From Escherichia phage phiAPCEc03, in the sequence record NC_047754.1: a DNA stretch of 64,000 bases. The stretch is one strand, 5' to 3'. Shown here in pieces: positions 1,529-24,262 of the stretch. The translations under genes were made by a program, and so were the position numbers. The notes under the pieces are model-generated. The model was not told the DNA's origin. It made no database searches and saw nothing but the letters and a program-made list of their open reading frames with translations. Positions within the stretch are counted from its first letter, which is position 1; every line of letters starts with the position of its first letter.

Positions 1529-1559
1529 ATTTATCTCTCCATTTCTAATTTATGAATCT

Positions 1560-1588: not shown

Positions 1589-1613
1589 ATACATTTTTAT
1601 AATAGGAGATTAT

Positions 1614-3371: not shown

Positions 3372-3381
3372 AGGAGGAAAT

Positions 3382-5180: not shown

Positions 5181-5294
5181 ATAAATATAGGAAGGGATAC
5201 TACTCAGTTGGTATCCCATTCCTGCATTTTAAAATCCCCTTTACAAATTCGATACGATTATGTATACTATATTCATACAGTTGAGGAGAACACT

Positions 5295-5732
5295 ATGGCA
5301 AGCAATATAAAATATAAACGCGATGCTATATCCCTTATGAGAGACGGAATAAAAAGTCAATATAAAAAAGACTCTCAATGTGCTATCTGCGGTTGTGCTG
5401 AAGAATTAGAGCTTCATCATTACCATACGGTGTCTCTACTAGTTAAAAAATTTGCTAAAGAACTCCAATTGGATTTCACTGACGAAGAAACAGTCCTTTC
5501 AAATAGGACGGCATTCTATGATCGATATAGGCATGAGCTAGTAGAAGACACTGTTACCCTTTGTGTACACCATCACCAATTATTACATAAGGTTTACACA
5601 AAAGAACCTCCTTTATTTTCTGCTAATAAGCAAAAAGTGTGGGTTCAAAAGCAGAAAGACAAATTACAGAATCCTCAAGAAAAGACACAAGTCAAGACTG
5701 AAACAAAATCAGGATTCGCAAGGTTCTTATAA
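5295..5732 (+). CDS. HNH endonuclease (Cys/His-box type)
   Basis: CAICGCAEELELHHYH ... CVHHHQLLH metal-binding pattern; ATG at 5295 preceded by GAGGAG SD (ORF track's upstream start at 5208 is unlikely); sits between terminase and portal. Confidence 0.6.
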   Translation: MASNIKYKRDAISLMRDGIKSQYKKDSQCAICGCAEELELHHYHTVSLLVKKFAKELQLDFTDEETVLSNRTAFYDRYRHELVEDTVTLCVHHHQLLHKVYTKEPPLFSANKQKVWVQKQKDKLQNPQEKTQVKTETKSGFARFL

Positions 5733-6949: not shown

Positions 6950-7431
6950 TTGATTATAGTGGTCTAAAGACCATTTTTGGTGAAAAACTGCCAGAATCTC
7001 ATATCTTCTTTGCTACGGTTGCTGCGCATAAATATGTTCCTAGCTACGCTTTTCTGCGTAGAGAACTAGGACTTTCATCTGCGCATACTAACCGTAAAGT
7101 ATGGAAGAAATTTGTAGAGACCTATGGTAAAGCAGTTCCTCCTGCTCCACCATTAACTCTTTCTAAGGATTTAACTGCTAGCATGTCCGTTGAAGAGGGA
7201 GCAGCGTTAACCCTTTCTGTTACTGCAACCGGTGGTATTGGTCCATATACTTATGCATGGACTAAAGATGGTTCTCCTATTCATGGTGCTTCAGGAGCTA
7301 CCTATACTAAGCCTGCAGCAGCTACAAAGTATTCTGGAGCCTATAAAGTAACTGTAACAGATAGTAAGCAAGTAAGCAAGGACTCTGCTACATGTGCTGT
7401 GACAGTTAATCCTACTGTTCCTGGAGGCTAA
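6946..7431 (+). CDS. capsid decoration protein with C-terminal Ig-like domain (T5 pb10-like)
   Basis: 161 aa; C-terminal segment SVEEGAALTLSVTATGGIGPYTYAWTKDGSPIHGASGATYTKPAAATKYSGAYKVTVTD is an Ig-like (Big/I-set type) fold signature; synteny portal-decoration-protease. Confidence 0.6.
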   Translation: MIDYSGLKTIFGEKLPESHIFFATVAAHKYVPSYAFLRRELGLSSAHTNRKVWKKFVETYGKAVPPAPPLTLSKDLTASMSVEEGAALTLSVTATGGIGPYTYAWTKDGSPIHGASGATYTKPAAATKYSGAYKVTVTDSKQVSKDSATCAVTVNPTVPGG

Positions 7432-7434
7432 TAA

Positions 7435-8067
7435 ATGACACAAGCTGCTATTGACTATAACAAGTTAAAATCAGCACACGTTCATTTAGATGCCTATATT
7501 AAATCTATTGATAGCGAATCCAAAGAGGGCGTTGTAAAAATCCGTGGATTCGCTAATACAATTAGTAAAGATCGCGCTGGTGATGTAATTCCTGCTTCTG
7601 CGTGGAAAACATCTAATGCACTTACTAACTATATGAAAAACCCGATTATTCTTTTCGGACACGATCATCGTCGTCCAATCGGTAAGTGTATTGATCTTAA
7701 CCCTACTGAAATGGGTCTCGAAATCGAATGCGAGATCTATGAAAGTTCTGACCCGGCTATCTTTTCACTAATTAAAAACGGTGTACTGAAAACTTTTAGT
7801 ATCGGATTCCGCTGCCTAGATGCAGAGTGGGATGAAGCTACTGATATATTTATTATTAAAGATTTAGAACTATACGAAGTTTCGGTAGTTTCTGTACCTT
7901 GTAATCAGGACTCAACGTTCAATCTCGCTAAGAGCATGAATGGTCATGATTATACTGAATGGCGTAAATCTTTTACTGCAATAAGTTCTAAAGCTGTCCC
8001 AGCTCAAGAACGTAATCTTTCTGAACTAGAAAAACTTGCGATAGCTTTAGGCTACGTTAAAGAATAA
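7435..8067 (+). CDS. prohead maturation protease
   Basis: 210 aa (same as T5 pb11); directly upstream of major capsid protein. Confidence 0.7.
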   Translation: MTQAAIDYNKLKSAHVHLDAYIKSIDSESKEGVVKIRGFANTISKDRAGDVIPASAWKTSNALTNYMKNPIILFGHDHRRPIGKCIDLNPTEMGLEIECEIYESSDPAIFSLIKNGVLKTFSIGFRCLDAEWDEATDIFIIKDLELYEVSVVSVPCNQDSTFNLAKSMNGHDYTEWRKSFTAISSKAVPAQERNLSELEKLAIALGYVKE

Positions 8068-8084
8068 CGGAGAATTATTTAAAA

Positions 8085-9458
8085 ATGACTATTGATATTA
8101 ATAAGCTGAAAGAAGAACTTGGTCTGGGTGATCTGGCTAAATCTCTGGAAGGTCTGACCGCTGCTCAGAAAGCTCAGGAAGCTGAACGTATGCGTAAAGA
8201 GCAGGAAGAAAAAGAACTGGCTCGTATGAATGACCTGGTTTCTAAAGCTGTTGGTGAAGACCGTAAGCGTCTGGAAGAGGCTCTGGATCTGGTTAAGTCT
8301 CTGGATGAGAAATCTAAGAAGAGCGCAGAACTGTTTGCACAAACTGTAGAAAAACAACAGGAAACTATTGTTGGTCTTCAGGACGAAATTAAATCTCTGC
8401 TAACAGCTCGTGAAGGTCGTTCCTTTGTTGGTGATAGTGTTGCTAAAGCACTGTACGGTACTCAGGAAAACTTTGAAGACGAAGTAGAAAAACTGGTTCT
8501 GTTGTCTTATGTAATGGAAAAAGGTGTATTCGAAACCGAACACGGTCAAAAACACCTGAAAGCAGTGAATCAGTCCTATTCTGTAGAAGTTTCTAGTGAA
8601 AGCTATGAAACTATTTTCTCCCAGCGTATTATCCGTGACCTGCAGAAAGAGCTGGTAGTTGGCGCACTGTTCGAAGAACTGCCGATGTCTAGTAAAATTC
8701 TTACTATGTTGGTTGAGCCAGACGCTGGTAAAGCTACTTGGGTTGCTGCTTCTACTTATGGTACTGATGCAACTACTGGTAATGAAGTTAAAGGTGCTCT
8801 TAAAGAAATCCACTTCAGTACTTACAAACTGGCTGCTAAGTCCTTCATTACTGATGAAACTGAAGAAGATGCAATCTTCTCTCTGCTGCCTCTGCTGCGT
8901 AAACGCCTGATTGAAGCACACGCTGTTTCTATCGAAGAAGCGTTTATGACTGGTGATGGTTCTGGTAAGCCGAAAGGCCTGTTGACTCTTGCTAGAGAAG
9001 ATGATGCTAAAGTTGCTACTGAAGCTAAAGCTGATGGTACTGTTCTGGTAACTGCTAAAACTATCTCTAAACTGCGTCGTAAACTGGGTCGTCATGGTCT
9101 GAAACTGAGCAAACTGGTACTTATCGTATCTATGGATGCTTACTACGATCTTCTGGAAGATGAAGAATGGCAGGATGTTGCACAGGTTGGTAACGATGCT
9201 GTTAAACTGCAAGGTCAGGTTGGTCGTATTTACGGTCTGCCGGTTGTAGTTTCTGAGTACTTCCCAGCTAAAGCTGCTTCCGCAGAGTTCGCAGTTATTG
9301 TTTATAAAGATAACTTCGTAATGCCGCGTCAGCGTGCTGTTACTGTTGAGCGTGAGCGCCAAGCTGGTAAACAGCGTGACGCATACTACGTTACCCAGCG
9401 TGTTAACCTGCAACGTTACTTTGCAAATGGCGTTGTATCTGGTACTTACGATGCTTAA
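8085..9458 (+). CDS. major capsid protein precursor (HK97 fold with N-terminal delta/scaffold domain)
   Basis: 457 aa; N-terminal ~150 aa coiled-coil rich in E/K/L (delta domain); strong high-expression codon bias (CTG, CGT, GGT, AAA); followed by strong terminator. Confidence 0.9.
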   Translation: MTIDINKLKEELGLGDLAKSLEGLTAAQKAQEAERMRKEQEEKELARMNDLVSKAVGEDRKRLEEALDLVKSLDEKSKKSAELFAQTVEKQQETIVGLQDEIKSLLTAREGRSFVGDSVAKALYGTQENFEDEVEKLVLLSYVMEKGVFETEHGQKHLKAVNQSYSVEVSSESYETIFSQRIIRDLQKELVVGALFEELPMSSKILTMLVEPDAGKATWVAASTYGTDATTGNEVKGALKEIHFSTYKLAAKSFITDETEEDAIFSLLPLLRKRLIEAHAVSIEEAFMTGDGSGKPKGLLTLAREDDAKVATEAKADGTVLVTAKTISKLRRKLGRHGLKLSKLVLIVSMDAYYDLLEDEEWQDVAQVGNDAVKLQGQVGRIYGLPVVVSEYFPAKAASAEFAVIVYKDNFVMPRQRAVTVERERQAGKQRDAYYVTQRVNLQRYFANGVVSGTYDA

Positions 9459-9477
9459 TACAGGCTTTTCAGCCGAT

Positions 9478-9505
9478 AAGGAGAGCTTCGGCTCTCCTTT
9501 TTTAT
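9478..9505 (+). terminator. intrinsic terminator after capsid gene
   Basis: Hairpin GGAGAGC-TTCG-GCTCTCC followed by TTTTTTATT. Confidence 0.7.
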
Positions 9506-9517
9506 TGGGAAAAATAA

Positions 9518-10030
9518 ATGCAAATAATCACAGCTGAAGATTATAGATTATATGGCGGGTTAAAACGACCTGAACTAGAATCTGGAGTAGAGATGATGAT
9601 TACTGCTGCCAATGCGCTGATTACTAGCCTTTTAGGTATGGATGATGCTGATGCGGTAGACCAGTTAATCAATACAAAACCTACTCGTAAAAAATACTTT
9701 TTAAGTTCTCCCTCAGCTACTTCAGTAACCAAAATGACTATTAATGATAAGGAGATAGATCCCGAACAGTATAAGTTGTACTCTGATGGGGTTATACTTC
9801 TTAAATTTAATCCTCCGGAAGGTTATATGGATGTAGAGTACACACAAGGTGGATTTAATCCAATACCTGAGGATCTCAAACTTGCAGCATGTATGCTAGT
9901 AGATCATTGGCATAAACAGGATTACCGTCAAGCTAAAACAATTGGTGGAGAAACAGTTACTTTTAATAATACTAAGTCTGGTATTCCAGAGCATATTCGT
10001 ACTATTATTGAAGTTTACAGGAGAGTATAA
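9518..10030 (+). CDS. putative head completion / head-tail adaptor protein
   Basis: 170 aa; position immediately after capsid gene in T5-like order. Confidence 0.5.
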   Translation: MQIITAEDYRLYGGLKRPELESGVEMMITAANALITSLLGMDDADAVDQLINTKPTRKKYFLSSPSATSVTKMTINDKEIDPEQYKLYSDGVILLKFNPPEGYMDVEYTQGGFNPIPEDLKLAACMLVDHWHKQDYRQAKTIGGETVTFNNTKSGIPEHIRTIIEVYRRV

Positions 10031-10797
10031 TGTCTCTTTCTGATTTAGCTACACAAATTATTAAGGAGCAACTAGATACTGTCGGACGTTCCGAGAACAA
10101 TAAAAATACTGTTGTATACTCTGTTGAAACAGGATTAAAAGATCCTACTAGGGACGGTACTGTTGCTCAAGTATCTTTTAAGTTTTCAAAACCTGTATCA
10201 CAAGATCTTCTTAATATTAGAACCGCTTCTATATTAAAAGCTGTATCCTCTAGTTTAGATCTTTCTGGAGATTTAGGTGCTCTAGAGAACTTAATACAAG
10301 CAACCGCTGGTAAAAAATCCTCAGTAGGTAAAAAACGTTCTACTGGTAGAGTGCAGGTAAATTTTGGGGATCCTAGAGACGTAGAAGATGGATATTCTGG
10401 TGCAGTAACAGGTGCTTCAGGACGTTTTGTATCAAATAGCAATATGAAGGTTATTCTGGAGTTGGTTGCTAAAGAATACTTAATAAAGGATATGAAAAAA
10501 GCAGGAGCGCCATTAAAATTTAGAACTGGTCGCTTTGCAAACTCTTTAAAAATTAAAGATGTTATGCTTAGAGACGCAGAGACTAGTAAAGGTGCCCCAG
10601 AACTAAACGTAACATATAACTATATGACTCGTCCATATTCTGTATTCAACCCCGCAGTATCTACATACAGAAGATTATCTCTACGACCTTATCCTGGCGC
10701 TAGAAACCCACAAAAACTTATTGGTGAGGCTATAGCAAAAGCTGCAAGAGACCTGATTCACTCCAGATATAAAATTAAGGTTAATCAAGGAACCTAA
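10030..10797 (+). CDS. putative neck / head-tail connector protein
   Basis: 255 aa; synteny between head completion and tail terminator genes. Confidence 0.45.
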   Translation: MSLSDLATQIIKEQLDTVGRSENNKNTVVYSVETGLKDPTRDGTVAQVSFKFSKPVSQDLLNIRTASILKAVSSSLDLSGDLGALENLIQATAGKKSSVGKKRSTGRVQVNFGDPRDVEDGYSGAVTGASGRFVSNSNMKVILELVAKEYLIKDMKKAGAPLKFRTGRFANSLKIKDVMLRDAETSKGAPELNVTYNYMTRPYSVFNPAVSTYRRLSLRPYPGARNPQKLIGEAIAKAARDLIHSRYKIKVNQGT

Positions 10798-10800
10798 TAA

Positions 10801-11286
10801 ATGGACCATAGAACAAGTATTGCACAAGCTATGGTTGACCGAATCTCTAAACAAATGGATGGTTCTCAACCTGACGAATATTTTAATAACCTATACGGAA
10901 ACGTTTCTCGTCAAACTTATAAATTTGAGGAAATACGAGAGTTTCCTTATGTGGCAGTTCATATCGGAACTGAAACTGGGCAGTATCTTCCTTCGGGCCA
11001 ACAGTGGATGTTTTTAGAACTTCCAATCCTGGTGTACGATAAAGAGAAAACAGACATTCAAGAGCAACTTGAAAAACTCGTAGCGGATATAAAAACCGTT
11101 ATTGACACAGGTGGAAATTTAGAATATACTGTTAGTAAACCTAATGGATCGACCTTCCCATGTGAGGCAACTGATATGATCATTACATCAGTTAGTACAG
11201 ATGAGGGTCTACTGGCCCCATATGGTTTAGCAGAAATAAATGTAACAGTGAGGTATCAGCCTCCACGTAGGTCACTTCGCAGATAA
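10801..11286 (+). CDS. putative tail terminator / tail completion protein (T5 p142-like)
   Basis: 161 aa, immediately upstream of tail tube gene. Confidence 0.5.
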   Translation: MDHRTSIAQAMVDRISKQMDGSQPDEYFNNLYGNVSRQTYKFEEIREFPYVAVHIGTETGQYLPSGQQWMFLELPILVYDKEKTDIQEQLEKLVADIKTVIDTGGNLEYTVSKPNGSTFPCEATDMIITSVSTDEGLLAPYGLAEINVTVRYQPPRRSLRR

Positions 11287-11312
11287 GTTACAGATTAGGA
11301 GAAAATAATTAA

Positions 11313-12707
11313 ATGTCTTTACAACTATTACGTAATACTCGAATCTTCGTGTCTACGGTTAAGACCGGTCACAATAAGACCAACACGCAAGAGATTCTAG
11401 TTCAGGATGATATTTCTTGGGGTCAGGACAGTAACTCAACAGATATTACTGTTAATGAAGCTGGTCCGCGTCCAACTCGTGGTTCTAAACGTTTTAATGA
11501 CTCTTTAAACGCAGCTGAGTGGAGTTTCTCTACTTATATCCTGCCGTATAAAGATAAAAATACTAACAAACAAATTGTTCCTGACTATATGTTATGGCAT
11601 GCACTTTCTAGTGGTAAAGCCCTTAACCTGGAAGGTGATACAGGGGCACACAATAACGAAGCTAACTTTATGGTTAACTTCAAAGATAACTCCTATCATG
11701 AGTTAGCAATGTTACATATTTATATTCTGACTGATAAAGCATGGAGTTATATCGATTCCTGTCAGATTAATCAGGCAGAAGTTAACGTTGATATCGAAGA
11801 TATTGGCCGTGTAACTTGGTCTGGTAATGGTAATCAGCTTATTCCTCTGGATAAGCAACCATTTGACCCAGATAAATTAGGTATTGATGATGAAACTTAT
11901 ATGACTATCCAGAGTTCTTATATTAAGAACAAACTTACTATCCTGAAAATTAAGGATATGGATTCTGGTAAAGCATATGATATTCCTATTACTGGTGGTA
12001 CTTTCACTATTAATAACAACATCACGTACCTAACCCCGAATATTATGTCCCGTGTAAATATTCCGATCGGTTCATTTACTGGTGCATTTGAACTAACTGG
12101 TTCATTAACTGCTTATCTGAATGATAAATTTCTTGGTTCTATGGAGCTGTACAAAGATCTTATCAAAACTCTGAAGGTAGTTAACCGCTTCGAAATTGCT
12201 CTAGTACTTGGTGGTGAATACAAGGAAGAACGTCCTGCGGCTATTCTGGTAGCTAAACAAGCACACGTTAATATTCCTACTATTGAAACTGATGATGTAC
12301 TTGGTACTTCAGTAGAGTTTAAAGCTATTCCATCTGATCTGGATGCTGGTGATGAAGGTTACTTAGGCTTCTCTAGTAAATATACCAAAACAACTATTAA
12401 TAACTTGATTGTTAATGGTGATGGTGCTACTAATGCTGTAACCGCAATTACTGTTAAATCTGCTGGTGATGCTACTACAGTAAACAACTCGGCTACTCTT
12501 CAAATGAGTGTTGAAGTTACTCCTTCTCCCGCAAAGAATAAGGAAGTTACTTGGGCTATCACTGCCGGTGATGCAGCTACTATCAGTGCAACCGGACTGT
12601 TGACAGCAGATGCTAGTAAAACTGGTGCAGTTACTGTGAAAGCTACTGCTAAAGATGGTTCTGGAGTTAAAGGTACTAAACAGATTACTGTAACAGCAGG
12701 TGGCTAA
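11313..12707 (+). CDS. major tail tube protein with C-terminal Ig-like domain (T5 pb6-like)
   Basis: 464 aa (same as T5 pb6); C-terminal ~90 aa Ig-like (Big_2-type) segment VTAITVKSAGDATTVNNSATLQMSVEVTPSPAKNKEVTWAI...; high-expression codon usage. Confidence 0.8.
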   Translation: MSLQLLRNTRIFVSTVKTGHNKTNTQEILVQDDISWGQDSNSTDITVNEAGPRPTRGSKRFNDSLNAAEWSFSTYILPYKDKNTNKQIVPDYMLWHALSSGKALNLEGDTGAHNNEANFMVNFKDNSYHELAMLHIYILTDKAWSYIDSCQINQAEVNVDIEDIGRVTWSGNGNQLIPLDKQPFDPDKLGIDDETYMTIQSSYIKNKLTILKIKDMDSGKAYDIPITGGTFTINNNITYLTPNIMSRVNIPIGSFTGAFELTGSLTAYLNDKFLGSMELYKDLIKTLKVVNRFEIALVLGGEYKEERPAAILVAKQAHVNIPTIETDDVLGTSVEFKAIPSDLDAGDEGYLGFSSKYTKTTINNLIVNGDGATNAVTAITVKSAGDATTVNNSATLQMSVEVTPSPAKNKEVTWAITAGDAATISATGLLTADASKTGAVTVKATAKDGSGVKGTKQITVTAGG

Positions 12708-12711
12708 TTAA

Positions 12712-13611
12712 ATGTACTACTCTCTAATGAGAGAGTCAAAAGTTATAGTTGAGTATGATGGTAGGGCATTTCATTTTGATGCCCTATCAAACTATGATAT
12801 ACAGACTTCCTACGAGGAATTCAAGACTCTTCGTAGGACTGTTCATCGTAGAACTAACTATGCAGACTCTATTATAAATGCTCAAACTCCCTCTTCTATC
12901 TCTCTAGCAGTAAATTTCAGCAATACTCTTACTGAGGCTAACTTCTTTGAATGGTTAGGTTTTGATAGAAAAGGTAATACTTTCTTACTCCCACTATATA
13001 GTAATAATATTGAACCTATTATGTTCAATATCTATATAGTAAACAAAGATAATAACTGTGTATATTTTGAAAACTGCTATGTATCTACAGTAGATTTTTC
13101 TTTAGATAAGAATATACCAATTCTTAATGTTGGTATTGAGTCTGGGAAATTCTCAGAAGTATCTACCTATAGAGAAGCCGCTTCTATTATACAGGGTGAA
13201 GTAATGTCTTACAGCCCAGTAATAGCTTCTACTAATGGCAGCATCTTACCCGGTCTTATTTCTGCCTCTTTATCTTTCCAACAGCAGTGCTCCTGGAGAG
13301 AGGATAAGAGTGTTTTTGATATAAATAAAATTTATAATAATAAAAGAGCCTATGTAACTGAAATGAATGCTTCGGCAACCCTTTCTCTGTATTACTTAAA
13401 ACGTTTTGCAGGAGATATGGTTTATAATATAGAACCGGAGATAGATGTACCTTTAACGATAAGAAATAATAATATTTCTATAGATTTTCCTTCAGCACGT
13501 ATTACAAAACGCCTAGATTTCTCAGATGTGTATAGAGTTGAGTGGGATATTATACCTACTGCCTCCTCAGACCCAGTGAGAATAGATTTCTTTGGAGAAA
13601 TTAAAAAATGA
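12712..13611 (+). CDS. tail collar/minor tail protein (T5 p140-like)
   Basis: 299 aa; position between tail tube and chaperone genes. Confidence 0.45.
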   Translation: MYYSLMRESKVIVEYDGRAFHFDALSNYDIQTSYEEFKTLRRTVHRRTNYADSIINAQTPSSISLAVNFSNTLTEANFFEWLGFDRKGNTFLLPLYSNNIEPIMFNIYIVNKDNNCVYFENCYVSTVDFSLDKNIPILNVGIESGKFSEVSTYREAASIIQGEVMSYSPVIASTNGSILPGLISASLSFQQQCSWREDKSVFDINKIYNNKRAYVTEMNASATLSLYYLKRFAGDMVYNIEPEIDVPLTIRNNNISIDFPSARITKRLDFSDVYRVEWDIIPTASSDPVRIDFFGEIKK

Positions 13612-14012
13612 TTAATTTAAAAGATATTACTCTTGATACTCGTACTATTACTCTTTCCTACCCAGGTATGCCGAACTTTAAACTAGAACTTAACTATATG
13701 TCTCGTGCTACCTCTAAACGTGTTATTTCTTCTGCTAAACGCGATGAATGGGTTAACGGTACTTTGGTTCAGGTACAGGATGATGATAAGTTCATTGAAG
13801 CCTTCGTTGATGCTGCGATTAAAGGTTGGACTGGTTTGACTGTTGGTGACGTTGAAAAACTGATGCTGATTGAAACAGATGCTGATCCTGAGACTGAAGT
13901 TCCTTTTAGTCGCGATAATGCTGTAATGCTTATGCAGAACTCTTCTGCGTTTGATTCCTGGATCAACCAGACAGTGTTCCACTTAGACACTTTTCGTAGC
14001 TCAAAAGCGTAA
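13608..14012 (+). CDS. putative tail assembly chaperone
   Basis: 134 aa acidic protein directly upstream of tape measure gene; canonical chaperone position. Confidence 0.5.
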   Translation: MINLKDITLDTRTITLSYPGMPNFKLELNYMSRATSKRVISSAKRDEWVNGTLVQVQDDDKFIEAFVDAAIKGWTGLTVGDVEKLMLIETDADPETEVPFSRDNAVMLMQNSSAFDSWINQTVFHLDTFRSSKA

Positions 14013-14073
14013 AGAGTTACTAGATGCTGTTGCTGATTTTGCAGACAAATGTATTAAAAGCTCAGCATCTAAA

Positions 14074-14442
14074 ATGACTAAACAACAATATTTAATACTT
14101 TGCGAGTCAATGGGTATAGAGCCTGATCCTAAGGCTATGCCCGTTGAACTTGAGGATTTTCCACCTATTGTAGCTATTAGTATGAATATTTATAATAGTC
14201 TAGTTGACTGTTTCATACCTGGTGACTTCCCTATCTTTATAGGTAAAGACAAAGCTGCTTTAGGTGTTTTATTTGATATTTATGGGATTACTGATCCTAT
14301 AGAAAAAGAATTTGTTCTACACATTATCAATATATTTGATGCTAAAGCTGTAGACGCTGCACGTAAACGTGCTGAGAAGCATAAGCCGCAAAACGGTAGA
14401 ATACCTAACGTTAAGCCGCACGCCAGATCTCGAGCACGGTAA
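14074..14442 (+). CDS. putative tail assembly chaperone, second component (possible frameshift extension)
   Basis: 122 aa; reading frame (+1 relative to upstream ORF) is open back to 13987, overlapping the upstream ORF end by 26 nt. Confidence 0.4.
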   Translation: MTKQQYLILCESMGIEPDPKAMPVELEDFPPIVAISMNIYNSLVDCFIPGDFPIFIGKDKAALGVLFDIYGITDPIEKEFVLHIINIFDAKAVDAARKRAEKHKPQNGRIPNVKPHARSRAR

Positions 14443-14467
14443 AAGTTTCCTCCAATGGGCGTTCCAC

Positions 14468-14500
14468 GATGAGGCTTGGCTCTGGGTGATTTGCCCAGAG
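14468..14500 (+). terminator. intrinsic terminator before tape measure gene
   Basis: Hairpin GGCTCTGGG-tgatttg-CCCAGAGCC followed by TTTTTTATT. Confidence 0.7.
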
Positions 14501-14525
14501 CCTTTTTTATTGGGAAAAATAAAAT

Positions 14526-17500
14526 ATGACTGATAAGCTAATACGAGAATTACTAATAGACGTTAAACAGAAGGGGGCAACCCGTACTGCAAAGTCTATT
14601 GAAAACGTATCTGATGCATTAGAAAATGCTGCTGCTGCTTCCGAACTGACAAATGAACAGTTAGGTAAAATGCCCAAAACTCTATATTCCATTGAGAGGG
14701 CAGCAGATAGAGCAGCGAAAAGTCTTACTAAAATGCAAGCTAGCAGAGGTATGCTTAGTATTACTAAATCTATTAATGATATAGGAGCTAAGTTAGATGA
14801 TCTCGCTATTACAATGATTGAAGTAGCAGATAAATTAGAAGTCGGATTTGATGGAGTTTCTAGATCTGTTAAAACAATGGGCAATGATGTTGCAGCTGCA
14901 ACAGAGAAGGTTCAAGATAGGTTATATGATACTAATAGGGCTTTAGGAGGTACGGCTAAAGGCTTTAATGATACTACTGGTGCTGCTGGTAGAGCTTCTA
15001 GAGCTATTGGTAATACTTCTGGTTCAGCACGTGGTGCAACTCGTGATTTTGCAGCAATGGCTAAAATTGGTGGTAGTTTACCTATTATGTACGCAGCTCT
15101 TGCTTCCAATATCTTCGTTCTGCAATCCGCGTTCGAACAACTTAAACTAGGTGATCAGTTAAATCGTCTAGAAAAATTTGGTGTTATAGTAGGTACTCAG
15201 ACTGGTACTCCTGTTCAGTCTCTTGCTAGATCACTACAAGAAGCTGCCGGGTATGCTATCTCCTTTGAAGAAGCAATGAGACAAGCATCCTCAGCGTCCG
15301 CTTATGGCTTTGATGCCGAACAACTTAATAAATTTGGTTTAGTAGCTCGTCGTGCTGCTGCTGTTCTTGGTGTTGATATGACTGATGCACTTAACCGTGT
15401 AATTAGGGGCGTATCTAAACAAGAAATCGAACTTCTGGATGAACTTGGTGTCACCATCCGTCTTAATGACGCATACGCTGATTATGTTAAACAGTTAAAT
15501 GCTGCAAACACAGGTATAACATATAATGTTAATAGTCTTACCACTTTCCAGAAACAACAAGCATACGCTAACGCGGTAATTGCTGAATCTACTAAGCGGT
15601 TTGGCTACCTAGATGAAGTACTACGTGCAACTCCATGGGAGCAATTTGCTGCTAATGCAGATGCTGCACTAAGAAAAATACAACAAGCTGCTGCTAAGTA
15701 TTTAGGGCCAGTAATTGATGCTATCAACACAGTATTTTATACATCTCAGGCTTCTATATCTGCTGAGGCAGCTAGAGCTCAAGAAAAAACTAATAGACAG
15801 ATAGACCCTACCAACGTTGGTGCTGTTGCTTTAAGTTTAGCTGCTTCTGAAGAAGGCTATAATAAAGCTCTAGATATGTATAAGGAATCTCTTGATAAGC
15901 GTAATAAGCTAAAATCTGAGTTCGATAAACGAATGGAACAAGCAGATTTCTATACAAAACTAGCTATACGTCAAGTTGGTGAAGGTATTCCTGTTGGTCT
16001 TGCAGCAGCAGGTGCTTCGGAGGCCAATAAGCAATTTGTAGCAGAAACTGCAGCTATGGGTTTACAAGTAACTAGACTTGGTAAAGAAGTAGAGGATTCT
16101 ACTGAAAACCTCAATGCTTGGAAATCAGCGTATCAAGCTGCTGGAGCTGCTGCTGCAAAAGCTAACCCCGAGTTTCAGAAGCAAATTAATCTACAGAGAG
16201 ATACTACTGATCCTGATGCTGTATACGATTTTAACTCTACTGTATTAAAAGGACTAACTGAGCAGCAGAAAGCGTACAATCAGACTAAGAAAACTGCTAG
16301 TGACTTAGCTAATGATATACAGAACGTTGCTCAGAATACAGATACTGCTGCTAAAACTAGTACTACGTTAGCAGATGCTATAAAAAACATAGAATCTCTA
16401 TCTCTAGGTACGGGTAAAAGTGCAGATGAGTATGTTAAAAATCTTAATTTAGGCTATAATACGTTATCTGAGATGAAAACTGCTTCTCAGGCCTTGTCCG
16501 AGTATGTTAAACTAACTGGTAATGAAACTAAAAATCAGTTAGCAGTTCAACAGAAAATAGCCGATGTGTATAATCAAACTAAGGATAAGGAAAAGGCTCA
16601 GGAAGCTGGTAGACGTTTAGAGTTGCAACAGTTAGAAGAGCAAGAAGCTGCTTTACGCCGTGTTCTTCAAACAAACCAGGGAAATAAAGCTGTTGAGAAA
16701 GAAATTGAAAAAATTCAGCTGGAGAAACTTAAACTTACCAATCAGGGTATGGAGGCCCAGAAGAAGATTAAGGATTATACAGATAAAATCCTGGGTGTAG
16801 ATCGTGAGATAGCTCTTCTGAATGACCGCACTATGACTACTACTCAATATAGATTAGCTCAGCTAAAACTAGAACTAACTATAGAGAAAGAGAAGTACGA
16901 ATGGTATACAAAACAAGCGGACAAACAGAAAGAGGCAGAACAGTCTAGACGTGCTCAAGCACAAATAAGCAGAGAAATATGGGAAGCGGAGAAACAGGCA
17001 ACTGCCTCACATGTATCAGCTCTCATGGATGCGCTAGAGGTCAGCCAAACGCAGAGGAATGTTACTGGTCAATCTCAAATTCTTACTGAAAGATTATCCA
17101 TTCTGCAGCAACAGCTGGAGCTGTCTAAGGGCAATACTGAGGAAGAAATTAAATATCGTAATGAGATTTATAAAACTTCGGCGGCCTTAGAGCAGCTTAG
17201 AAAACAGAGAGATATCCAGATGCAGCAACAGGTGGGATCTTCTGTAGGTGCTGTATATACTCCTACAACTGGACTATCTGGGGAGGATAAAGATTTTGCT
17301 GATATGCAAAATAGAATGGCTTCTTATGATCAGGCAATCTCTAAACTATCTGAATTAAATTCTGAAGCAACCGCTGTGGCTCAAAGTATGGGTAACTTAA
17401 CTAACGCTATGATTCAGTTCTCTCAGGGATCCCTAGATACTACCTCCTTGATTGCTTCTGGCATGCAAACTGTATCTTCTATGATTCAGTATAGTACTAG

Positions 17501-18206
17501 TCAACAGGTTAGTGCAATTGATCAGGCTATTGCAGCAGAACAGAAACGTGATGGTAAATCAGAAGCATCTAAAGCTAAGTTGAAGAAGTTGGAAGCTGAA
17601 AAGCTGAAGATTCAACAAGACGCAGCTAAGAAGCAGATTATCATCCAAACTGCAGTAGCTGTAATGCAAGCGGCAACAGCTGTACCATACCCGTTCTCTA
17701 TTCCTTTAATGGTTGCGGCAGGTTTAGCGGGTGCATTGGCGTTAGCACAAGCATCTTCTGCATCTGGTATGTCAAGTATTGCTGATTCTGGGGCGGATAC
17801 AACTAGTTACTTAACCTTAGGAGAGCGTCAGAAGAATATAGATGTGTCCATGTCTGCTAATGCAGGTGAACTATCTTATATTCGTGGCGATCAAGGTATA
17901 GGTAGTGCCAACTCTTTCGTTCCTCGTGCTGAGGGTGGTAATATGTATCCAGGGGTTAGCTATCAAATGGGTGAGCATGGTACAGAAGTAGTTACCCCTA
18001 TGGTTCCTATGAAAGCTACACCTAATGATGAGCTAAAAACCTCGTCTAACTCAACTTCAGGAAGACCTATCATCCTGAATATTAGTGCTATGGATGCTGC
18101 AAGTTTTAGAGAGTTTGCTTCTAGTAATAGTGGTGCTCTAAGAGACGCGGTAGAATTAGCTCTGAATGAGAACGGTGCTAGTCTGAAAACATTAGGAAAT
18201 TCTTAA
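14526..18206 (+). CDS. tape measure protein (T5 pb2-like)
   Basis: 1226 aa, largely alpha-helical/coiled-coil (A/Q/E/K rich); hydrophobic stretch near C-terminus (AVAVMQAATAVPYPFSIPLMVAAGLAGALALA); position before distal tail protein. Confidence 0.9.
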   Translation: MTDKLIRELLIDVKQKGATRTAKSIENVSDALENAAAASELTNEQLGKMPKTLYSIERAADRAAKSLTKMQASRGMLSITKSINDIGAKLDDLAITMIEVADKLEVGFDGVSRSVKTMGNDVAAATEKVQDRLYDTNRALGGTAKGFNDTTGAAGRASRAIGNTSGSARGATRDFAAMAKIGGSLPIMYAALASNIFVLQSAFEQLKLGDQLNRLEKFGVIVGTQTGTPVQSLARSLQEAAGYAISFEEAMRQASSASAYGFDAEQLNKFGLVARRAAAVLGVDMTDALNRVIRGVSKQEIELLDELGVTIRLNDAYADYVKQLNAANTGITYNVNSLTTFQKQQAYANAVIAESTKRFGYLDEVLRATPWEQFAANADAALRKIQQAAAKYLGPVIDAINTVFYTSQASISAEAARAQEKTNRQIDPTNVGAVALSLAASEEGYNKALDMYKESLDKRNKLKSEFDKRMEQADFYTKLAIRQVGEGIPVGLAAAGASEANKQFVAETAAMGLQVTRLGKEVEDSTENLNAWKSAYQAAGAAAAKANPEFQKQINLQRDTTDPDAVYDFNSTVLKGLTEQQKAYNQTKKTASDLANDIQNVAQNTDTAAKTSTTLADAIKNIESLSLGTGKSADEYVKNLNLGYNTLSEMKTASQALSEYVKLTGNETKNQLAVQQKIADVYNQTKDKEKAQEAGRRLELQQLEEQEAALRRVLQTNQGNKAVEKEIEKIQLEKLKLTNQGMEAQKKIKDYTDKILGVDREIALLNDRTMTTTQYRLAQLKLELTIEKEKYEWYTKQADKQKEAEQSRRAQAQISREIWEAEKQATASHVSALMDALEVSQTQRNVTGQSQILTERLSILQQQLELSKGNTEEEIKYRNEIYKTSAALEQLRKQRDIQMQQQVGSSVGAVYTPTTGLSGEDKDFADMQNRMASYDQAISKLSELNSEATAVAQSMGNLTNAMIQFSQGSLDTTSLIASGMQTVSSMIQYSTSQQVSAIDQAIAAEQKRDGKSEASKAKLKKLEAEKLKIQQDAAKKQIIIQTAVAVMQAATAVPYPFSIPLMVAAGLAGALALAQASSASGMSSIADSGADTTSYLTLGERQKNIDVSMSANAGELSYIRGDQGIGSANSFVPRAEGGNMYPGVSYQMGEHGTEVVTPMVPMKATPNDELKTSSNSTSGRPIILNISAMDAASFREFASSNSGALRDAVELALNENGASLKTLGNS

Positions 18207-18210
18207 AACT

Positions 18211-18240
18211 GGAGGAGGACTTTGAGTCCTCCTTTTCTTT
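18211..18240 (+). terminator. intrinsic terminator after tape measure gene
   Basis: Hairpin GGAGGAC-tttga-GTCCTCC followed by TTTTCTTT. Confidence 0.65.
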
Positions 18241-18259
18241 ATGGAAAAATAAAAATTTC

Positions 18260-18288
18260 TTGATAAAATTTTCTAATACTATTATAAT
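18260..18288 (+). promoter_or_regulatory. sigma70-like promoter upstream of baseplate genes (-35 TTGATA, 17 nt, -10 TATAAT)
   Basis: TTGATA-aaattttctaatactat-TATAAT about 30 nt upstream of the 18316 start; SD AAGAGGAG. Confidence 0.5.
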
Positions 18289-18315
18289 AATTGTATCTAA
18301 GAGGAGAAATTAACT

Positions 18316-18930
18316 ATGAGATTACCAGACCCATACACGAATCCAGAACTTTCAGGATTAGGATTCGAAAGTGTTAACCTGATTGATAATGACCCAGTAA
18401 TTCGTGATGAGTTACCAAATGGTAAAGTTAACGAAGTTAAGGTATCTGCTCAATACTGGGGTATAAATATTTCTTATCCAGAATTATTTCCAGATGAATA
18501 TAATGTTCTAGATGCTTTTATTCTAGAATACAAAAGGACTGGTAGTTATATAGATGTTATATTACCCCAATACGAAGCTTTTAGAGTTAGAGGTAATACT
18601 AACTTAGTAAATATACCAGCAGGACAAAAAGGTTCCAATATTACTATGGATACAAAAGGTGTTCTTACCGGTATCCCTAAACCAGGTGATTTATTTAAAT
18701 TATCCAATCACCCAAAAGTTTATAAAATAACATCATTTAATAGATCTGGTAATTCATGGTCTATTAACGTATACCCTGATTTATTTGTAACGACTACTGG
18801 AGCTGAAAAACCAGTATTTAATGGGATACTGTTTAGAACAAAACTCATGAATGGTGATGCTTTCGGATCTACATTAAATAATAACGGAACGTATTCCGGC
18901 ATCTCATTAAATTTACGGGAAAGTTTATGA
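18316..18930 (+). CDS. distal tail protein (T5 pb9-like)
   Basis: 204 aa (same as T5 pb9); directly after tape measure gene. Confidence 0.65.
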   Translation: MRLPDPYTNPELSGLGFESVNLIDNDPVIRDELPNGKVNEVKVSAQYWGINISYPELFPDEYNVLDAFILEYKRTGSYIDVILPQYEAFRVRGNTNLVNIPAGQKGSNITMDTKGVLTGIPKPGDLFKLSNHPKVYKITSFNRSGNSWSINVYPDLFVTTTGAEKPVFNGILFRTKLMNGDAFGSTLNNNGTYSGISLNLRESL

Positions 18931-21776
18931 AAAAAATACTAGATAGTGCTAGAAACTACTTAAAAAATAATAGCAGAATAAAAACTGCTAGTCTAATTTC
19001 CCTAGAATTACCTGGCTCTACTGGTACTAGTACTGCTTTTATTTATTTAACTGATTATTTTAGAGATGTACTATATAATGGTATTTTGTACCAGGCCGGT
19101 AAGGTTAAGTCCATTAGCACACATAAACAAAATAGAGATTTATCTATTGGCAGTCTATCTTTTACTATTACAGGTACAGCGCAGGATGAAGTACTAAAAC
19201 TAGTGCAAAATGGTGTATCCTTCTTAGATAGAACCGTATCAATTCATCAAGCAATTATTACTGAAGATGGTTCTATTCTACCAGTAGACCCCGATACAAA
19301 TGGTCCTTTACTATATTTTAGAGGGAGGATTACTGGAGGGGGTATTAAAGATAACATTAGTACCTCTGGAGTAGGAACCTCTACAATTACCTGGAATTGT
19401 TCTAACCAATTCTATGACTTTGATAGAGTTAATGGTAGATATACTGATGACGCTTCCCATAGGGGGCTTGAAGTTGTAGCTGGACAGTTAGTACCATCTA
19501 ATGGTGCTAAAAGACCAGAGTATCAAGAAGACTACGGCTTCTTCCACTCTAATAAAAGTATCTCTATCCTAGCAAAATATCAGGTTCAAGAAGAAAGATA
19601 CAAGCTAAAATCAAAGAAAAAATTATTTGGTTTATCTAGAAGCTACAGCCTTAAAAAATACTATGAAACTGTCACTAAGGAAGTGGATATAGATTTTAAC
19701 CTTGCTGCTAAATACATACCGGTGGTTTATGGAGTTCAAAAAATTCCTGGAATACCCATTTTTGCTGATACAGAACTACACAATCCCAACATAGTTTATG
19801 TCGTATACGCCTTTGCTGAGGGGGAGATTGATGGTTTTCTTGATTTCTCCTTTGGTGATAACCCTATGATCTGCGTAGATGCTAATGACAGCTCCGCTAG
19901 AACCTGCTTTGGTACTAAAAAAATAGCAGGAGATACAATGCAGAGGATAGCATCTGGAACCTCTTCTAGTAGTCCATCCGTCCATGGTCAAGAGTATAAG
20001 TATAATGATGGAAATGGTGACATAAGGATTTGGACTTATCACGGAAAATCTGATCAAACAGCCTCTGAAGTACTAGTAGATATAGCTAAAGAACGTGGAT
20101 TCTACCTTCAGAATATGAATGGCAATGGGCCGGAGTACTGGGATGCTAGATATAAGCTACTAGATACTGCATACGCAGTGGTGCGCTTCACTATTAATGA
20201 AAATAGGACTGAGATTCCAGAAGTTAGTGCTGAAATTCAAGGTAAAAAAGTAAAAGTCTATCATTCTGATGGTAGAGTAACTGCTAATAGTACTAGTTTA
20301 AATGGTATTTGGCAAACACTTGATTACTTAACCTCTGATAGATATGGCGCTAATATTACCATTGATCAGTTCCCCCTTCAGCAATTAATACAGGAAGCAT
20401 CTATTTTAGATATTATAGATGAATCCTATCAGGTATCTTGGCAGCCATATTGGAGATACGTTGGGTGGACTGATCCACTAGCAGAAAATAGACAAATAGT
20501 ACAAATGAATACTATTCTGGATACATCTGAATCAGTATTTAAAAATGTGCAAGGTTTGTTAGAGTCCTATGGTGGGGCTATTAACAATTTATCTGGCCAG
20601 TATAGGGTTACTGTAGAAAAATACTCTAATACTCCCTTAGAGATTAATTTTCTAGATACTTACGGTGATTTGGAGCTATCAGATACTACTGGTAGAAATA
20701 AATTCAACTCAGTTCAAGCATCTATCGTAGATCCCGCCCTTAGCTGGAAAACTAATTCTATTACATTCTATAATTCCAAGTATAAGGAACAGGACAAGAA
20801 CCTAGATAAAAAATTACAACTATCTTTTGCTAATATTACTAACTACTATACTGCAAGAAGTTTTGCGGATAGAGAACTTAAGAAATCCAGATACTCAAGA
20901 ACACTTTCTTTCTCATTACCATACCAGTTCATAGGGATTGAACCCAATGATGCTATTGCATTCACGTATGACCGTTACGGGTGGAACAGAAAGTATTTCC
21001 TAGTTGATGAGGTTGAAAACTCTAGAGAGGGTAAGATAAATGTTACCTTACAGGAGTATGGAGAGGATGTATTCATCAACTCTGAGCAGGTTGATAATAG
21101 CGGTAATGATATTCCTGATATTAGTAACAATGTCCTTCCTCCTAGAGACTTTAAATATACTCCTACTCCTGGCGGTTTAGTAGGCTCTATAGGTAAAAAT
21201 GGTGAGTTATCCTGGCTTCCGAGTCTAACCAATAATGTAGTTTACTACTCTATTGTGCACTCAGGCCATGCCGAACCTTACATAATACAACAGTTAGAGA
21301 CCAATCCTAACGAACGTATGATCCAAGAAATAATTGGGGAACCAGCAGGTCTGGCTATATTTGAGATAAGGGCAGTAGATATTAATGGTAGAAGAAGTTC
21401 CCCGGTGACTCTGTCTATAGAACTTAACTCTGCTAAAAACCTTAGTGTAGTATCTAATTTTAGGGTAACTAATACGGCCTCTGGGGATGTAACTGAGTTT
21501 GTCGGCCCAGATGTAAAACTAGCTTGGGATAGGATACCGGAAGAAGATATAATAGAGAGTATATTTTATACCCTTGAAATACACGATTCACAAAATAGGA
21601 TGTTAAGAAGTGTACGTATTGAAAATCAGTATACTTATGACTATTTATTAACGTATAATAAGGCAGATTTTGCTCTCCAGAACAGCGGTGCTCTAGGTAT
21701 AAATAGAAAATTGTATTTTCGTATTAGGGCTGAGGGGAATGATGGAGAACAGTCTGTGGAGTGGGCATCCATTTAA
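18927..21776 (+). CDS. baseplate hub protein (T5 pb3-like)
   Basis: 949 aa (same as T5 pb3); canonical position after distal tail protein. Confidence 0.75.
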   Translation: MKKILDSARNYLKNNSRIKTASLISLELPGSTGTSTAFIYLTDYFRDVLYNGILYQAGKVKSISTHKQNRDLSIGSLSFTITGTAQDEVLKLVQNGVSFLDRTVSIHQAIITEDGSILPVDPDTNGPLLYFRGRITGGGIKDNISTSGVGTSTITWNCSNQFYDFDRVNGRYTDDASHRGLEVVAGQLVPSNGAKRPEYQEDYGFFHSNKSISILAKYQVQEERYKLKSKKKLFGLSRSYSLKKYYETVTKEVDIDFNLAAKYIPVVYGVQKIPGIPIFADTELHNPNIVYVVYAFAEGEIDGFLDFSFGDNPMICVDANDSSARTCFGTKKIAGDTMQRIASGTSSSSPSVHGQEYKYNDGNGDIRIWTYHGKSDQTASEVLVDIAKERGFYLQNMNGNGPEYWDARYKLLDTAYAVVRFTINENRTEIPEVSAEIQGKKVKVYHSDGRVTANSTSLNGIWQTLDYLTSDRYGANITIDQFPLQQLIQEASILDIIDESYQVSWQPYWRYVGWTDPLAENRQIVQMNTILDTSESVFKNVQGLLESYGGAINNLSGQYRVTVEKYSNTPLEINFLDTYGDLELSDTTGRNKFNSVQASIVDPALSWKTNSITFYNSKYKEQDKNLDKKLQLSFANITNYYTARSFADRELKKSRYSRTLSFSLPYQFIGIEPNDAIAFTYDRYGWNRKYFLVDEVENSREGKINVTLQEYGEDVFINSEQVDNSGNDIPDISNNVLPPRDFKYTPTPGGLVGSIGKNGELSWLPSLTNNVVYYSIVHSGHAEPYIIQQLETNPNERMIQEIIGEPAGLAIFEIRAVDINGRRSSPVTLSIELNSAKNLSVVSNFRVTNTASGDVTEFVGPDVKLAWDRIPEEDIIESIFYTLEIHDSQNRMLRSVRIENQYTYDYLLTYNKADFALQNSGALGINRKLYFRIRAEGNDGEQSVEWASI

Positions 21777-23839: not shown

Positions 23840-24262
23840 ATGAGTACTGAAAATAGAGTTATAGACTTAGTAATAGATGAGAAAGTACCTTATGGTCTAA
23901 TGATGCAATTCTTAGATGTTGATGATAGTACTTATCCCCCTACAAACACCCCTGTTAACTTAACAGGGTATTCTCTAAAGGGTACTATAAAGAATAGCCT
24001 TGATGAGAATGCGGAAACTTTGGCATCTTTTACTACTAAAATTATTGATGCTGCTCAAGGTGCTATAGCTATAAGTTTACCTGTAGAGGCGGTAGATAAT
24101 ATTGGTGAAAAAGCCACCAAAGAGAGAGATAAGTATAACCCTCGCCAACGTTTTGCAGGATACTATGATATAATTATGACACGAGATGTCATAGGATCAG
24201 CTATTAGCTCTTTTCGTATAATGGAGGGTAAAGTATTTATCAGTGATGGGGTAACTAGATAA
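23840..24262 (+). CDS. putative collar protein (T5 p132-like)
   Basis: 140 aa; immediately upstream of lateral tail fibre gene. Confidence 0.45.

Follow-up and report, generated by a model that had tools for sequence, protein, structure and literature searches.

The closest described system is bacteriophage T5. Its RefSeq record (NC_005859) lists terminators at positions 101563-101586, 96553-96587 and 92087-92113, together with a promoter P-G 25 at 92013-92087. As in Escherichia phage phiAPCEc03, the three T5 terminators follow the genes for the major head protein, the tail assembly chaperone and the tape measure protein Pb2. The T5 promoter PG25 has late kinetics as determined by primer extension (PMC7472727), and a promoter consensus of T5-like phages includes an AT-rich '-43 region (AAAAATT)' (PMC3326045). 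The sequences of T5 and phiAPCEc03 are nearly identical at the first and third of these terminators. In phiAPCEc03 a short sequence recurs directly behind the three hairpins; the T5 record does not annotate this recurrence as a feature. The recurrent sequence is probably a composite, i.e., the U-tract of a terminator joined either to a ribosome binding site (sites 1 and 2) or to an A-rich block of PG25 (site 3).

The window analyzed is the whole stretch of 64,000 nt from phiAPCEc03 (NC_047754.1), a T5-like phage. An earlier sequence-only reading reported the same sequence after three late-region hairpins, and all three sequences are present in the window. Site 3 is where it was placed (TTTTCTTTATGGAAAAATAAAAA, positions 18233-18255, + strand), but the 21-mer TTTTTTATTGGGAAAAATAAA (+ strand) starts at 9498 and not 9499 at site 1, and at 14503 and not 14493 at site 2. 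A strong hairpin stands directly before each of the three copies, at 9478-9499, 14478-14502 and 18211-18235, and an ATG comes after site 1 (9518) and site 2 (14526). The identity between sites 1 and 2 extends over 23 nt (CCTTTTTTATTGGGAAAAATAAA), with exact copies at 9496-9518 and 14501-14523 and nowhere else in the whole window. Site 3 has in common with them only the 11-mer core GGAAAAATAAA, located at 18243-18253, and a T-rich lead-in; it is not recovered with the 17-mer TTATTGGGAAAAATAAA when up to three mismatches are allowed. A search of both strands of the window finds the exact core three times, and it is confined to the three post-terminator sites. It lies 8-9 nt past a terminator stem in all three copies.

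The 23-nt repeat does not stem from chance, since 100 simulations of the window with an order-3 Markov model gave no exact direct repeat as long as this; the longest ones measured 14-19 nt. For sites 1 and 2 a purely compositional origin in an AT-rich genome is thus refuted, and as a general explanation it is hardly tenable, in that it also has to account for three exact 11-mers at the same distance from a terminator stem and for strong purifying selection on these regions. What speaks for it is that the likeness of site 3 is limited to an 11-nt A-rich core after a T-tract, and that the 11-mer with one mismatch is found 6 times against 3.5 expected, an enrichment that is not significant.

The first half of the motif belongs to the hairpins. 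The three hairpins are the top three + strand terminator candidates in positions 1-20000, which bears out their description as strong terminators. Terminator 1 (9478-9499, +; AAGGAGAGC-UUCG-GCUCUCCUU) was identified by the terminator scan and follows the major capsid gene (8085-9458). It has a delta G of -14.5 kcal/mol and the tail UUUUUUAUU. Terminator 2 (14478-14502, +; GGCUCUGGGU-GAUUU-GCCCAGAGCC) is the top-ranked candidate of the scan, with -19.1 kcal/mol and the same tail, UUUUUUAUU. Terminator 3 (18211-18235, +), also from the scan, follows the tape measure gene and has -15.5 kcal/mol and the tail UUUUCUUUAU. The U-tracts can be read directly from the sequence on the + strand: TTTTTTATT at 9498-9506, which is the first half of the motif, TTTTTTATT again at 14503-14511, and TTTTCTTTAT at 18233-18242. 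A stop codon is present 5-36 nt upstream of each terminator. The structures are maintained in evolution. Compensatory changes are found in 4 of the 10 base pairs of terminator 1 across the family, including the Vibrio phages, and in five pairs of terminator 2 across genera. The diversity of terminator 1 among T5-like genomes is 0.016, compared with 0.23-0.28 at third codon positions. Orthologs of all three hairpins are annotated as rho-independent terminators ('putative') in the T5 RefSeq record, and terminators 2 and 3 are annotated as terminators in the record of Erwinia phage KEY. A G+C-rich stem-loop, a U-tract, a position after a stop codon and a conserved structure thus characterize all three, and they are best taken as real intrinsic terminators, which have the status of putative in the T5 annotation. 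A search of the searchable literature found no data on transcript ends or terminator efficiency for T5-like phages.

Two other structured or conserved segments are located next to these terminators. Just 5' of terminator 1, the 3' UTR of the major capsid gene contains a small hairpin, GGCUUUUCAGCCG (9463-9475, +). Its delta G is -5.0 kcal/mol (RNAfold). The GGC...GCC stem is constant and the loop is variable in PSTCR5, Torridgeon, KEY and L029, and there is little diversity among T5-like genomes. Between the stop codon of the tail assembly chaperone gene and terminator 2 is an invariant element, 'hairpin A' (TTTCCTCCAATGGGCGTTCCACGATGAGGCTT, 14446-14477, +). This 32 nt segment has zero diversity in 26 T5-like genomes, and it is near-identical in five genera, with one copy per genome. 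It is considered non-coding, since the frame in which it follows the stop codon is not the same from genus to genus. Coding by read-through or frameshift was rejected on the same ground, and Proteus phage Stubb has two stops. A search of Rfam gave no match for this element. A long-range pairing of UUUCCUCCAAU with AUUGGGAAA is possible in several genera; it is absent from the minimum-energy fold and shows no clean covariation. The sequence UUUCCUCC is located upstream of the tape measure start. Rfam 15 covariance models run over positions 9000-19000 with E values up to 10 gave only sub-threshold chance matches.

At sites 1 and 2 the second half of the motif leads into a gene. The initiation region of the head-completion gene (9507-9517, +) consists of GGGA and the spacer AAAATAA before the ATG at 9518; that of the tape measure gene (14512-14525, +) consists of GGGA and AAAATAAAAT before the ATG at 14526. 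The sequence-only reading had noted an ATG directly after the motif at two sites with GGGA as the sole Shine-Dalgarno (SD) sequence, and this is correct for sites 1 and 2. The spacing from GGGA to ATG is 7 nt at site 1 and 10 nt at site 2, and both ATG codons are conserved. A purine-rich complement of the anti-SD is thus present within 5-13 nt of a genuine start at both sites. The anti-SD duplex is weak, -4.2 kcal/mol at either site, which ranks 34-35 of 48 genes, where the genome median is -6.0. In the predicted fold the GGGAAA segment of site 1 is unpaired with a value of ~0.8. A-rich spacers that end in TAA or ATAA are usual in phiAPCEc03, e.g., ttggagaaaaataataATG. The spacer of site 2, from AAAAATAAA to the ATG, is variable among relatives (AAATG, AAAACATG, AAAATATG). 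Other SD sequences occupy the orthologous position in relatives, and the SD stays with its gene. From these properties, a translation initiation region with a weak SD is predicted for the second half at sites 1 and 2. Nearness of a terminator to a start codon is not limited to the late region, as two early-region terminators in the window also precede an ATG, within 11 and 23 nt.

The surroundings of site 3 are different. Downstream of it is PG25, with the sigma-70 core TTGATA-17-TATAAT (18260-18288, +), which has 11/12 matches to the consensus. The PG25 ortholog is annotated as 'promoter P-G 25' in the T5 RefSeq record; the PG25 sequence was not found in the supplement of PMC7472727. The promoter drives the distal-tail-protein gene, which has the SD GAGGAG at 18301-18306 and its ATG at 18316. 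An A-rich block, GGAAAAATAAAAATTTC (18243-18259, +), covers about -52 to -36 and abuts the -35 hexamer; its diversity is 0.003. Similar A-blocks are present at other promoters in the window, cagaaaaataaaacttttag-TTGCTA at 34900(-) and agaaataaaaaatttag-TTTACT at 1231(+), where no terminator precedes them. The second half of site 3 thus appears to be the UP-element-like A-rich block around -43 of PG25. A -35 and a -10 hexamer with 16-18 bp spacing are found at site 3 only. The promoter scan shows no promoter-like site immediately 3' of sites 1 or 2, and the nearest candidate (14599, TTGAAA-17-GAAAAT, 9/12) is inside the tape measure ORF.

These results bear on the suggestion that the motif is a late promoter or activator site. 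The suggestion holds for site 3, which is inside the late promoter PG25, and fails for sites 1 and 2, which have no promoter hexamers downstream. It is highly improbable that late transcription uses all three copies as DNA sites, e.g., as promoters or as binding sites of a factor such as D5, even though one copy is upstream of a late promoter and late expression in T5 needs phage proteins (PMC7472727). In T5, late promoters are of the sigma-70 type, with a -35 and a -10 hexamer (PMC7472727). PJ5 (11102-11130), the other mapped late promoter, is without the motif, and the promoter at 34900(-), which is in an early-gene region and is probably P31B of T5, has a near-identical A-block in front of it. 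The ATG is also only 7-10 nt from GGGA; a promoter or activator role cannot therefore hold for the downstream gene, as the transcript would lack the gene start. On these grounds the idea was rejected for the three sites taken together. Likewise, the treatment of the three copies as one element is supported with respect to recurrence and not with respect to a common function, as the copies differ in function.

Comparison with other phages shows how the two halves are related. In T5 the motif is interrupted by an HNH endonuclease gene, T5.141, which has inserted between terminator 2 and the gene for the tape measure protein. As this gene splits site 2, the T5 genome is left with only two copies of GGAAAAATAAA. 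After the insertion, TTTTTTATT is with the terminator and GGAAAAcattagATG is with the tape measure gene, which keeps cAGGAAAACATTAG-ATG beyond the insertion with GGAAAA adjoining. The halves are separable, since the insertion parts TTTTTTATT from GGAAAAcattagATG. The second half is also replaceable, because KEY (Erwinia) and L029 have AGGT or GAGGT in its place at site 1, and in Vibrio phages AAGGAG or AGGAGG follows the homologous terminators; all of these are ordinary SD sequences. Pseudomonas phage EM has the same layout (hairpin-TTTTTCATTGGAGATAAAAAATG), and in Acinetobacter phage Acibel004 (hairpin-TTTTTTATTGCTTAAAATATTTGTTGACA) a terminator and a -35 are annotated. The T6ATT tail is also found after unrelated terminators in Acibel004 and in a T4-like phage. 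The layout of a terminator followed by the next signal arises by convergence in unrelated phages.

A consensus that holds across the family, T6ATTGGG(A/T)AAAATAAATG, describes the junctions of sites 1 and 2. It is found again at one or the other of these sites in several genera, including those whose head-completion proteins are only ~30% identical. Sites 1 and 2 give no support for gene conversion or concerted evolution between them, in that variants at one site have no mirror at the other. Site 1 variants (ATTATTAGG or ATTGG) are found in L011, L024, L017 and L019. Exceptional conservation of the motif was not found either. The diversity at positions -20 to -1 is 0.021 for site 1 and 0.075 for site 2, compared with 0.0-0.2 for other late-gene RBS regions, so that other RBS regions in phiAPCEc03 are equally conserved; third codon positions in the same comparison have values of 0.05-0.38.

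The recurring consensus and the exact 23-nt identity, which is beyond chance, could be taken to represent a dedicated cis-acting RNA element bound by a trans-acting factor, the candidates being a translational regulator of the phage and the host proteins CsrA, Hfq and S1. Genes located after late terminators would then be controlled together, at the level of translation or of read-through. The features to be recognized would be GGA as part of the loop of a marginal A-U hairpin, followed by AAA-AAU-AAA, which is (ARN)n-like. Folding indeed places GGGAAA in the predicted loop of such a weak hairpin (UUUAUU/AAUAAA), and the position of the repeat is fixed relative to the terminator, not relative to the ATG. 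The hairpin, however, has a delta G of only -0.8 to -2.4 kcal/mol, and any T-tract followed by an A-tract can form one. The ordinary SD sequences of KEY, L029 and the Vibrio phages, the tolerance of T5 to the HNH insertion, and a conservation no higher than that of other RBS regions are also against an RNA element, and no candidate regulator was identified. Such an element is considered unlikely. An extended form of the proposal is that T5-like phages have a dedicated control element behind their terminators, made up of the 23-nt module and perhaps also of the invariant, anti-SD-like 14446-14477 element. A phage or host RNA-binding factor, or long-range UUUCC-GGAAA pairing with the SD, would then determine the extent of read-through and translation for low-copy virion proteins (head completion, tape measure). 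This is quite unlikely. If true, attenuation and translation would be coupled in one conserved cassette.

The motif has also been proposed as an RNA processing site. The usual context of RNase E is unstructured AU-rich RNA adjoining a stable stem-loop, and the RNA at the motif is of this kind. A cut in the AU-rich stretch would leave the upstream mRNAs protected by a hairpin and release the downstream mRNAs as separate molecules. The proteins encoded upstream are very abundant, and a 3' hairpin would be of benefit to their mRNA. A cut inside the motif, on the other hand, parts the downstream ORF from its SD or leaves a very short leader. An intrinsic terminator already provides a hairpin-protected 3' end, and therefore a separate processing signal is unneeded. 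A processing site is accordingly very unlikely. Nothing was found in support of a dedicated RNA processing element, nor of the dedicated re-initiation element that was suggested along with it.

The composite of terminator U-tract and adjacent signal is thus the preferred explanation. The motif is ordinary gene punctuation, most of it already annotated in T5, and does not represent a new signal. The two signals abut because the genome is tightly packed. The first half, TTTTTTATT or, at site 3, TTTTCTTTAT, is the U-tract of a rho-independent terminator. At sites 1 and 2 it is followed by a weak SD (GGGA/GGA), an A-rich and largely unstructured spacer of 7-10 nt and the ATG. The terminators may act as attenuators. 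There is no promoter between terminator and ATG for the head-completion and tape measure genes, and their transcription is therefore expected to occur by read-through. The weak SD would keep these two low-copy proteins far below the capsid and tail-tube proteins, which are abundant and have their genes upstream. After terminator 3, the tail-tip genes would be transcribed anew from PG25. Purifying selection on two similar terminator/RBS junctions would account for the 23 nt that are identical between sites 1 and 2. Against this explanation, the 23-nt exact repeat exceeds what a weak SD and an A-rich spacer need. The repeat is also anchored to the terminator and not to the ATG, with an SD-ATG spacing of 7 versus 10 nt that is variable among relatives. 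An additional constraint, or a past exchange of sequence, may be behind the consensus that recurs across genera.

The significance of these findings is small beyond annotation, and no long-standing question is opened. They do show that a striking exact repeat in the late region of a phage can come from two ordinary back-to-back signals. T5-like phages have strong terminators directly before essential low-copy genes without promoters of their own, which implies that expression of these genes depends on read-through.

With respect to known systems, site 3 resembles the Bujard-type T5 sigma-70 promoters with a '-43' block, for which the consensus was reported from phage AKFV33 (PMC3326045). It has an A-run and TTT directly before the -35 and contains the AAAAATT of that consensus. 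Sites 1 and 2, unlike the strong T5 sigma-70 promoters, have no hexamers downstream. Hairpins with the C(UUCG)G tetraloop are present in the intercistronic regions of T4, and phiAPCEc03 is similar in having a UUCG loop in a hairpin. The terminator-RBS junctions of compact phages, with attenuating terminators between a highly expressed structural gene and low-copy genes downstream, are comparable to sites 1 and 2, in that a stable hairpin and a U-tract are likewise followed within <=25 nt by the SD and start codon of the next gene. Sites 1 and 2 differ from these junctions in the unusually long exact sequence that they have in common.

The late structural module of phiAPCEc03 is located on the + strand at approximately 1.6 to 28.7 kb, and its gene order is that of T5. 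Genes for terminase, portal and protease lie ahead of the major capsid gene (8085–9458), which is followed by those for head completion (9518–10030), tail tube (11313–12707), two tail-assembly-chaperone ORFs (13608–14012 and 14074–14442), tape measure (14526–18206) and distal tail protein (18316–18930), all on the + strand. A database search with the 10-kb stretch around the motif sites finds 554 matching phage records; the strong matches are all T5-like (Demerecviridae), the best being Salmonella phage phC17 (94.8%). The two chaperone ORFs are separated by 61 nt in both the window and T5, and share a 26-nt overlap in Erwinia phage KEY (locus L036, 9119–9520 and 9495–9956). In the tail-fibre region, ORF 24262–26709 has in-frame tandem DNA repeats (24616–25160, + strand); it carries about three copies of a 21-nt unit, GCGAAGACTAGTGAAACTAAT, and a duplicated 75-nt unit in which identical stretches reach 35 nt (25062 and 25137).

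Three copies of the motif are found in this module on the + strand, as the sequence-only reading had described. At site 1, after the major capsid gene, a hairpin (9478–9499) is followed by TTTTTTATTGGGAAAAATAA-ATG, with the motif starting at 9498 and the ATG at 9518. At site 2, before the tape measure gene, the hairpin (14478–14502) is followed by the same 21-mer from 14503, with the ATG at 14526. Site 3, after the tape measure gene, has a hairpin at 18211–18235 and then TTTTCTTTATGGAAAAATAAAAA (18233–18255). The start at 18233 had been placed correctly, and that of site 2 was ten nt off (14493). Sites 1 and 2 are identical over an exact 23-mer, CCTTTTTTATTGGGAAAAATAAA, compared with a longest exact direct repeat of 14–19 nt in 100 order-3 Markov simulations. 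At site 3 a T-rich tail leads into the core GGAAAAATAAA, the only part shared with sites 1 and 2; the window has three exact copies of this 11-mer, solely at sites 1–3. Small slips in coordinates aside, the recurrence is real and not a product of chance. Other exact non-coding repeats of 19–22 nt are present (1547–1565/47405–47423, 34858–34877/34959–34978 and 43970–43991/45145–45166). On the - strand these correspond to the -10 hexamer of T5 early-type promoters together with the initial transcribed region (TATAAT-AGATTCATAAATT and the like), so recurrent regulatory 20-mers are common in this genome.

The hairpins at the three sites (terminators 1, 2 and 3) had been read as strong terminators; a terminator scan ranks them as the best three + strand candidates in the first 20 kb, and T5 RefSeq labels the three orthologous hairpins 'putative rho-independent transcription terminator'. 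Terminators after the capsid, chaperone and tape measure genes are maintained family-wide, as far as the Vibrio phages, and their stems show compensatory changes across the family. Terminator 1 is preceded by a small hairpin, GGCUUUUCAGCC (9463–9475, + strand), located after the capsid stop codon; the stem of this small hairpin is retained in other genera with a variable loop. Site 1 therefore has a two-hairpin 3' UTR, as does site 2. The terminator-to-start layout of sites 1 and 2 is also present at two early-region terminators on the - strand, where a start codon follows almost at once: ...ggggctttttgtgtatttggaatatgtaaATG (45565–45525, gene 45525–45217, terminator-to-start agcccctatatggggctttttgtgtatttggaatatgtaa-ATG) and ...ggcccctttctttttaaccaATG (33707–33676, gene 33676–32699, terminator-to-start gaggggcttcggcccctttctttttaacca-ATG). 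The latter, in front of the ortholog of T5 D12, has no recognisable SD.

The 75 nt behind the third terminator are annotated in T5 RefSeq as 'promoter P-G 25'. PG25 and PJ5 are classical sigma-70 late promoters of T5, with late kinetics determined by primer extension (PMC7472727). In the window, PJ5 is TTGACA-17-TATACT (11102–11130) and PG25 is TTGATA-17-TATAAT (18260–18288, + strand), so that the site 3 copy covers positions of about -36 to -52 in this known late promoter. This copy is the upstream A-block of PG25. In general, an A-tract at such a position acts as a UP element, which contacts the alpha subunit of RNA polymerase. Comparison of the 30 nt preceding the -35 hexamer at strong promoters in the window reveals similar A-blocks with no terminator in front, i.e., cagaaaaataaaacttttag-TTGCTA at 34900 (-), agaaataaaaaatttag-TTTACT at 1231 (+) and gtcaaaaaattttat-TTGCCA at 57058 (+). 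The promoter consensus of the T5-like phage AKFV33 includes an AT-rich '-43 region (AAAAATT)' (PMC3326045).

The suggestion of a late promoter thus holds for site 3 and fails for sites 1 and 2, downstream of which a promoter scan found no promoter-like hexamers. Sites 1 and 2 are better read as ribosome-binding regions. The head-completion and tape measure genes have conserved starts 7 and 10 nt past the GGGA, respectively, and this phage commonly has an A-rich spacer in front of the ATG, ending in TAA or ATAA (e.g., ttggagaaaaataataATG, ggagaaaataattaaATG and aaggaaatataaaatATG). The anti-SD (16S) score of both upstream regions is -4.2 kcal/mol (rank 34–35 of 48 genes, median -6.0); the SD is weak, yet inside the range of the genome. 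GGGAAA is predicted to be mostly unpaired, and a predicted hairpin of the U-tract with the A-run is marginal (-0.8 to -2.4 kcal/mol). The motif is probably a composite, in which a terminator U-tract is joined to the ribosome-binding site of the next gene (sites 1 and 2) or to the PG25 A-block (site 3).

Among 23–28 T5-like genomes, motif diversity is 0.045, 0.036 and 0.003 at sites 1, 2 and 3, and hairpin diversity is 0.016–0.034. Third codon positions beside the sites show approximately 0.17–0.30, which implies purifying selection on the motif. Its conservation is equalled by other late-module ribosome-binding regions: at -20 to -1, the capsid and tail tube genes show diversities of 0.0 and 0.009, respectively, versus 0.021 and 0.075 at sites 1 and 2. 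Variants at site 1 are not mirrored at site 2, or vice versa, in the T5-like loci compared, which gives no hint of gene conversion.

The same promoter scan shows no candidate between terminator and ATG for the head-completion gene, the two genes following it (up to PJ5) or the tape measure gene, and the T5 annotation likewise has none. Their expression would therefore depend on transcription reading through terminators 1 and 2, which may act as attenuators. Attenuation together with a weak SD would hold these low-copy virion proteins at much lower levels than the capsid and tail-tube proteins, the most abundant in the virion (BF23/T5 gels, PMC10644984); PG25 would restart transcription beyond terminator 3.

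A 32-nt element, TTTCCTCCAATGGGCGTTCCACGATGAGGCTT (14446–14477, + strand), separates the chaperone stop codon from terminator 2; it is non-coding, a coding role having been rejected. Across 26 T5-like genomes it does not vary, it is near-identical in five genera, and its first 11 nt can still be recognised in Vibrio phages. It is single copy per genome and limited to T5-like contigs; it has no Rfam match, and no covariation is seen in it. An anti-SD-like CCUCC is present, and the element could sequester the SD of the tape measure ribosome-binding site or be the seed of a 3' UTR-derived small RNA.

In T5, the HNH endonuclease gene T5.141 is inserted exactly between the terminator 2 U-tract and the tape measure ribosome-binding site (L030, the T5 locus, 14962–15772 = NC_005859 96553–95777; window counterpart 14503–14525). 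On one side of the insert TTTTTTATT remains with the terminator, and on the other cAGGAAAACATTAG-ATG remains with the tape measure gene; because the motif is split, T5 holds just two copies of GGAAAAATAAA. T5.141 is missing from the window and from nearly all 28 T5-like loci compared. Its insertion point adjoins the invariant 32-nt element, a possible homing target region. The motif thus appears to consist of two separable halves. The sequence after the U-tract varies within the family: ATTGGG(A/T)AAAATAAATG at one site or other in Tequintavirus, Novosibvirus, Priunavirus and Sugarlandvirus, ATTATAGGTACATAATG in Erwinia KEY, ATTAGAGGTATATAATG in locus L029, and AAGGAGAAATATATG and TAGGAGGTAACATG in Vibrio phages. 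It is improbable that a trans-acting factor recognises the 23-nt module, which is dispensable in several lineages, although the exact 23-nt repeat exceeds the needs of a weak SD, is anchored to the terminator and not to the ATG, and has the same consensus in genera whose head-completion proteins are just ~30% identical.

The composite of terminator and ribosome-binding site or A-block is made of ordinary elements whose T5 orthologs are already annotated. The earlier observation stands. Its interpretation does so in part, one of the copies being part of a known late promoter. The same layout is present in the unrelated Pseudomonas phage EM (GGGAGC-TTCG-GCTCCC-TTTTTCATTGGAGATAAAAAATG), and in the unrelated Acinetobacter phage Acibel004 a hairpin is followed by TTTTTTATTGCTTAAAATATTTG-TTGACA, where terminator and -35 are annotated; in these phages the layout arose by convergence.
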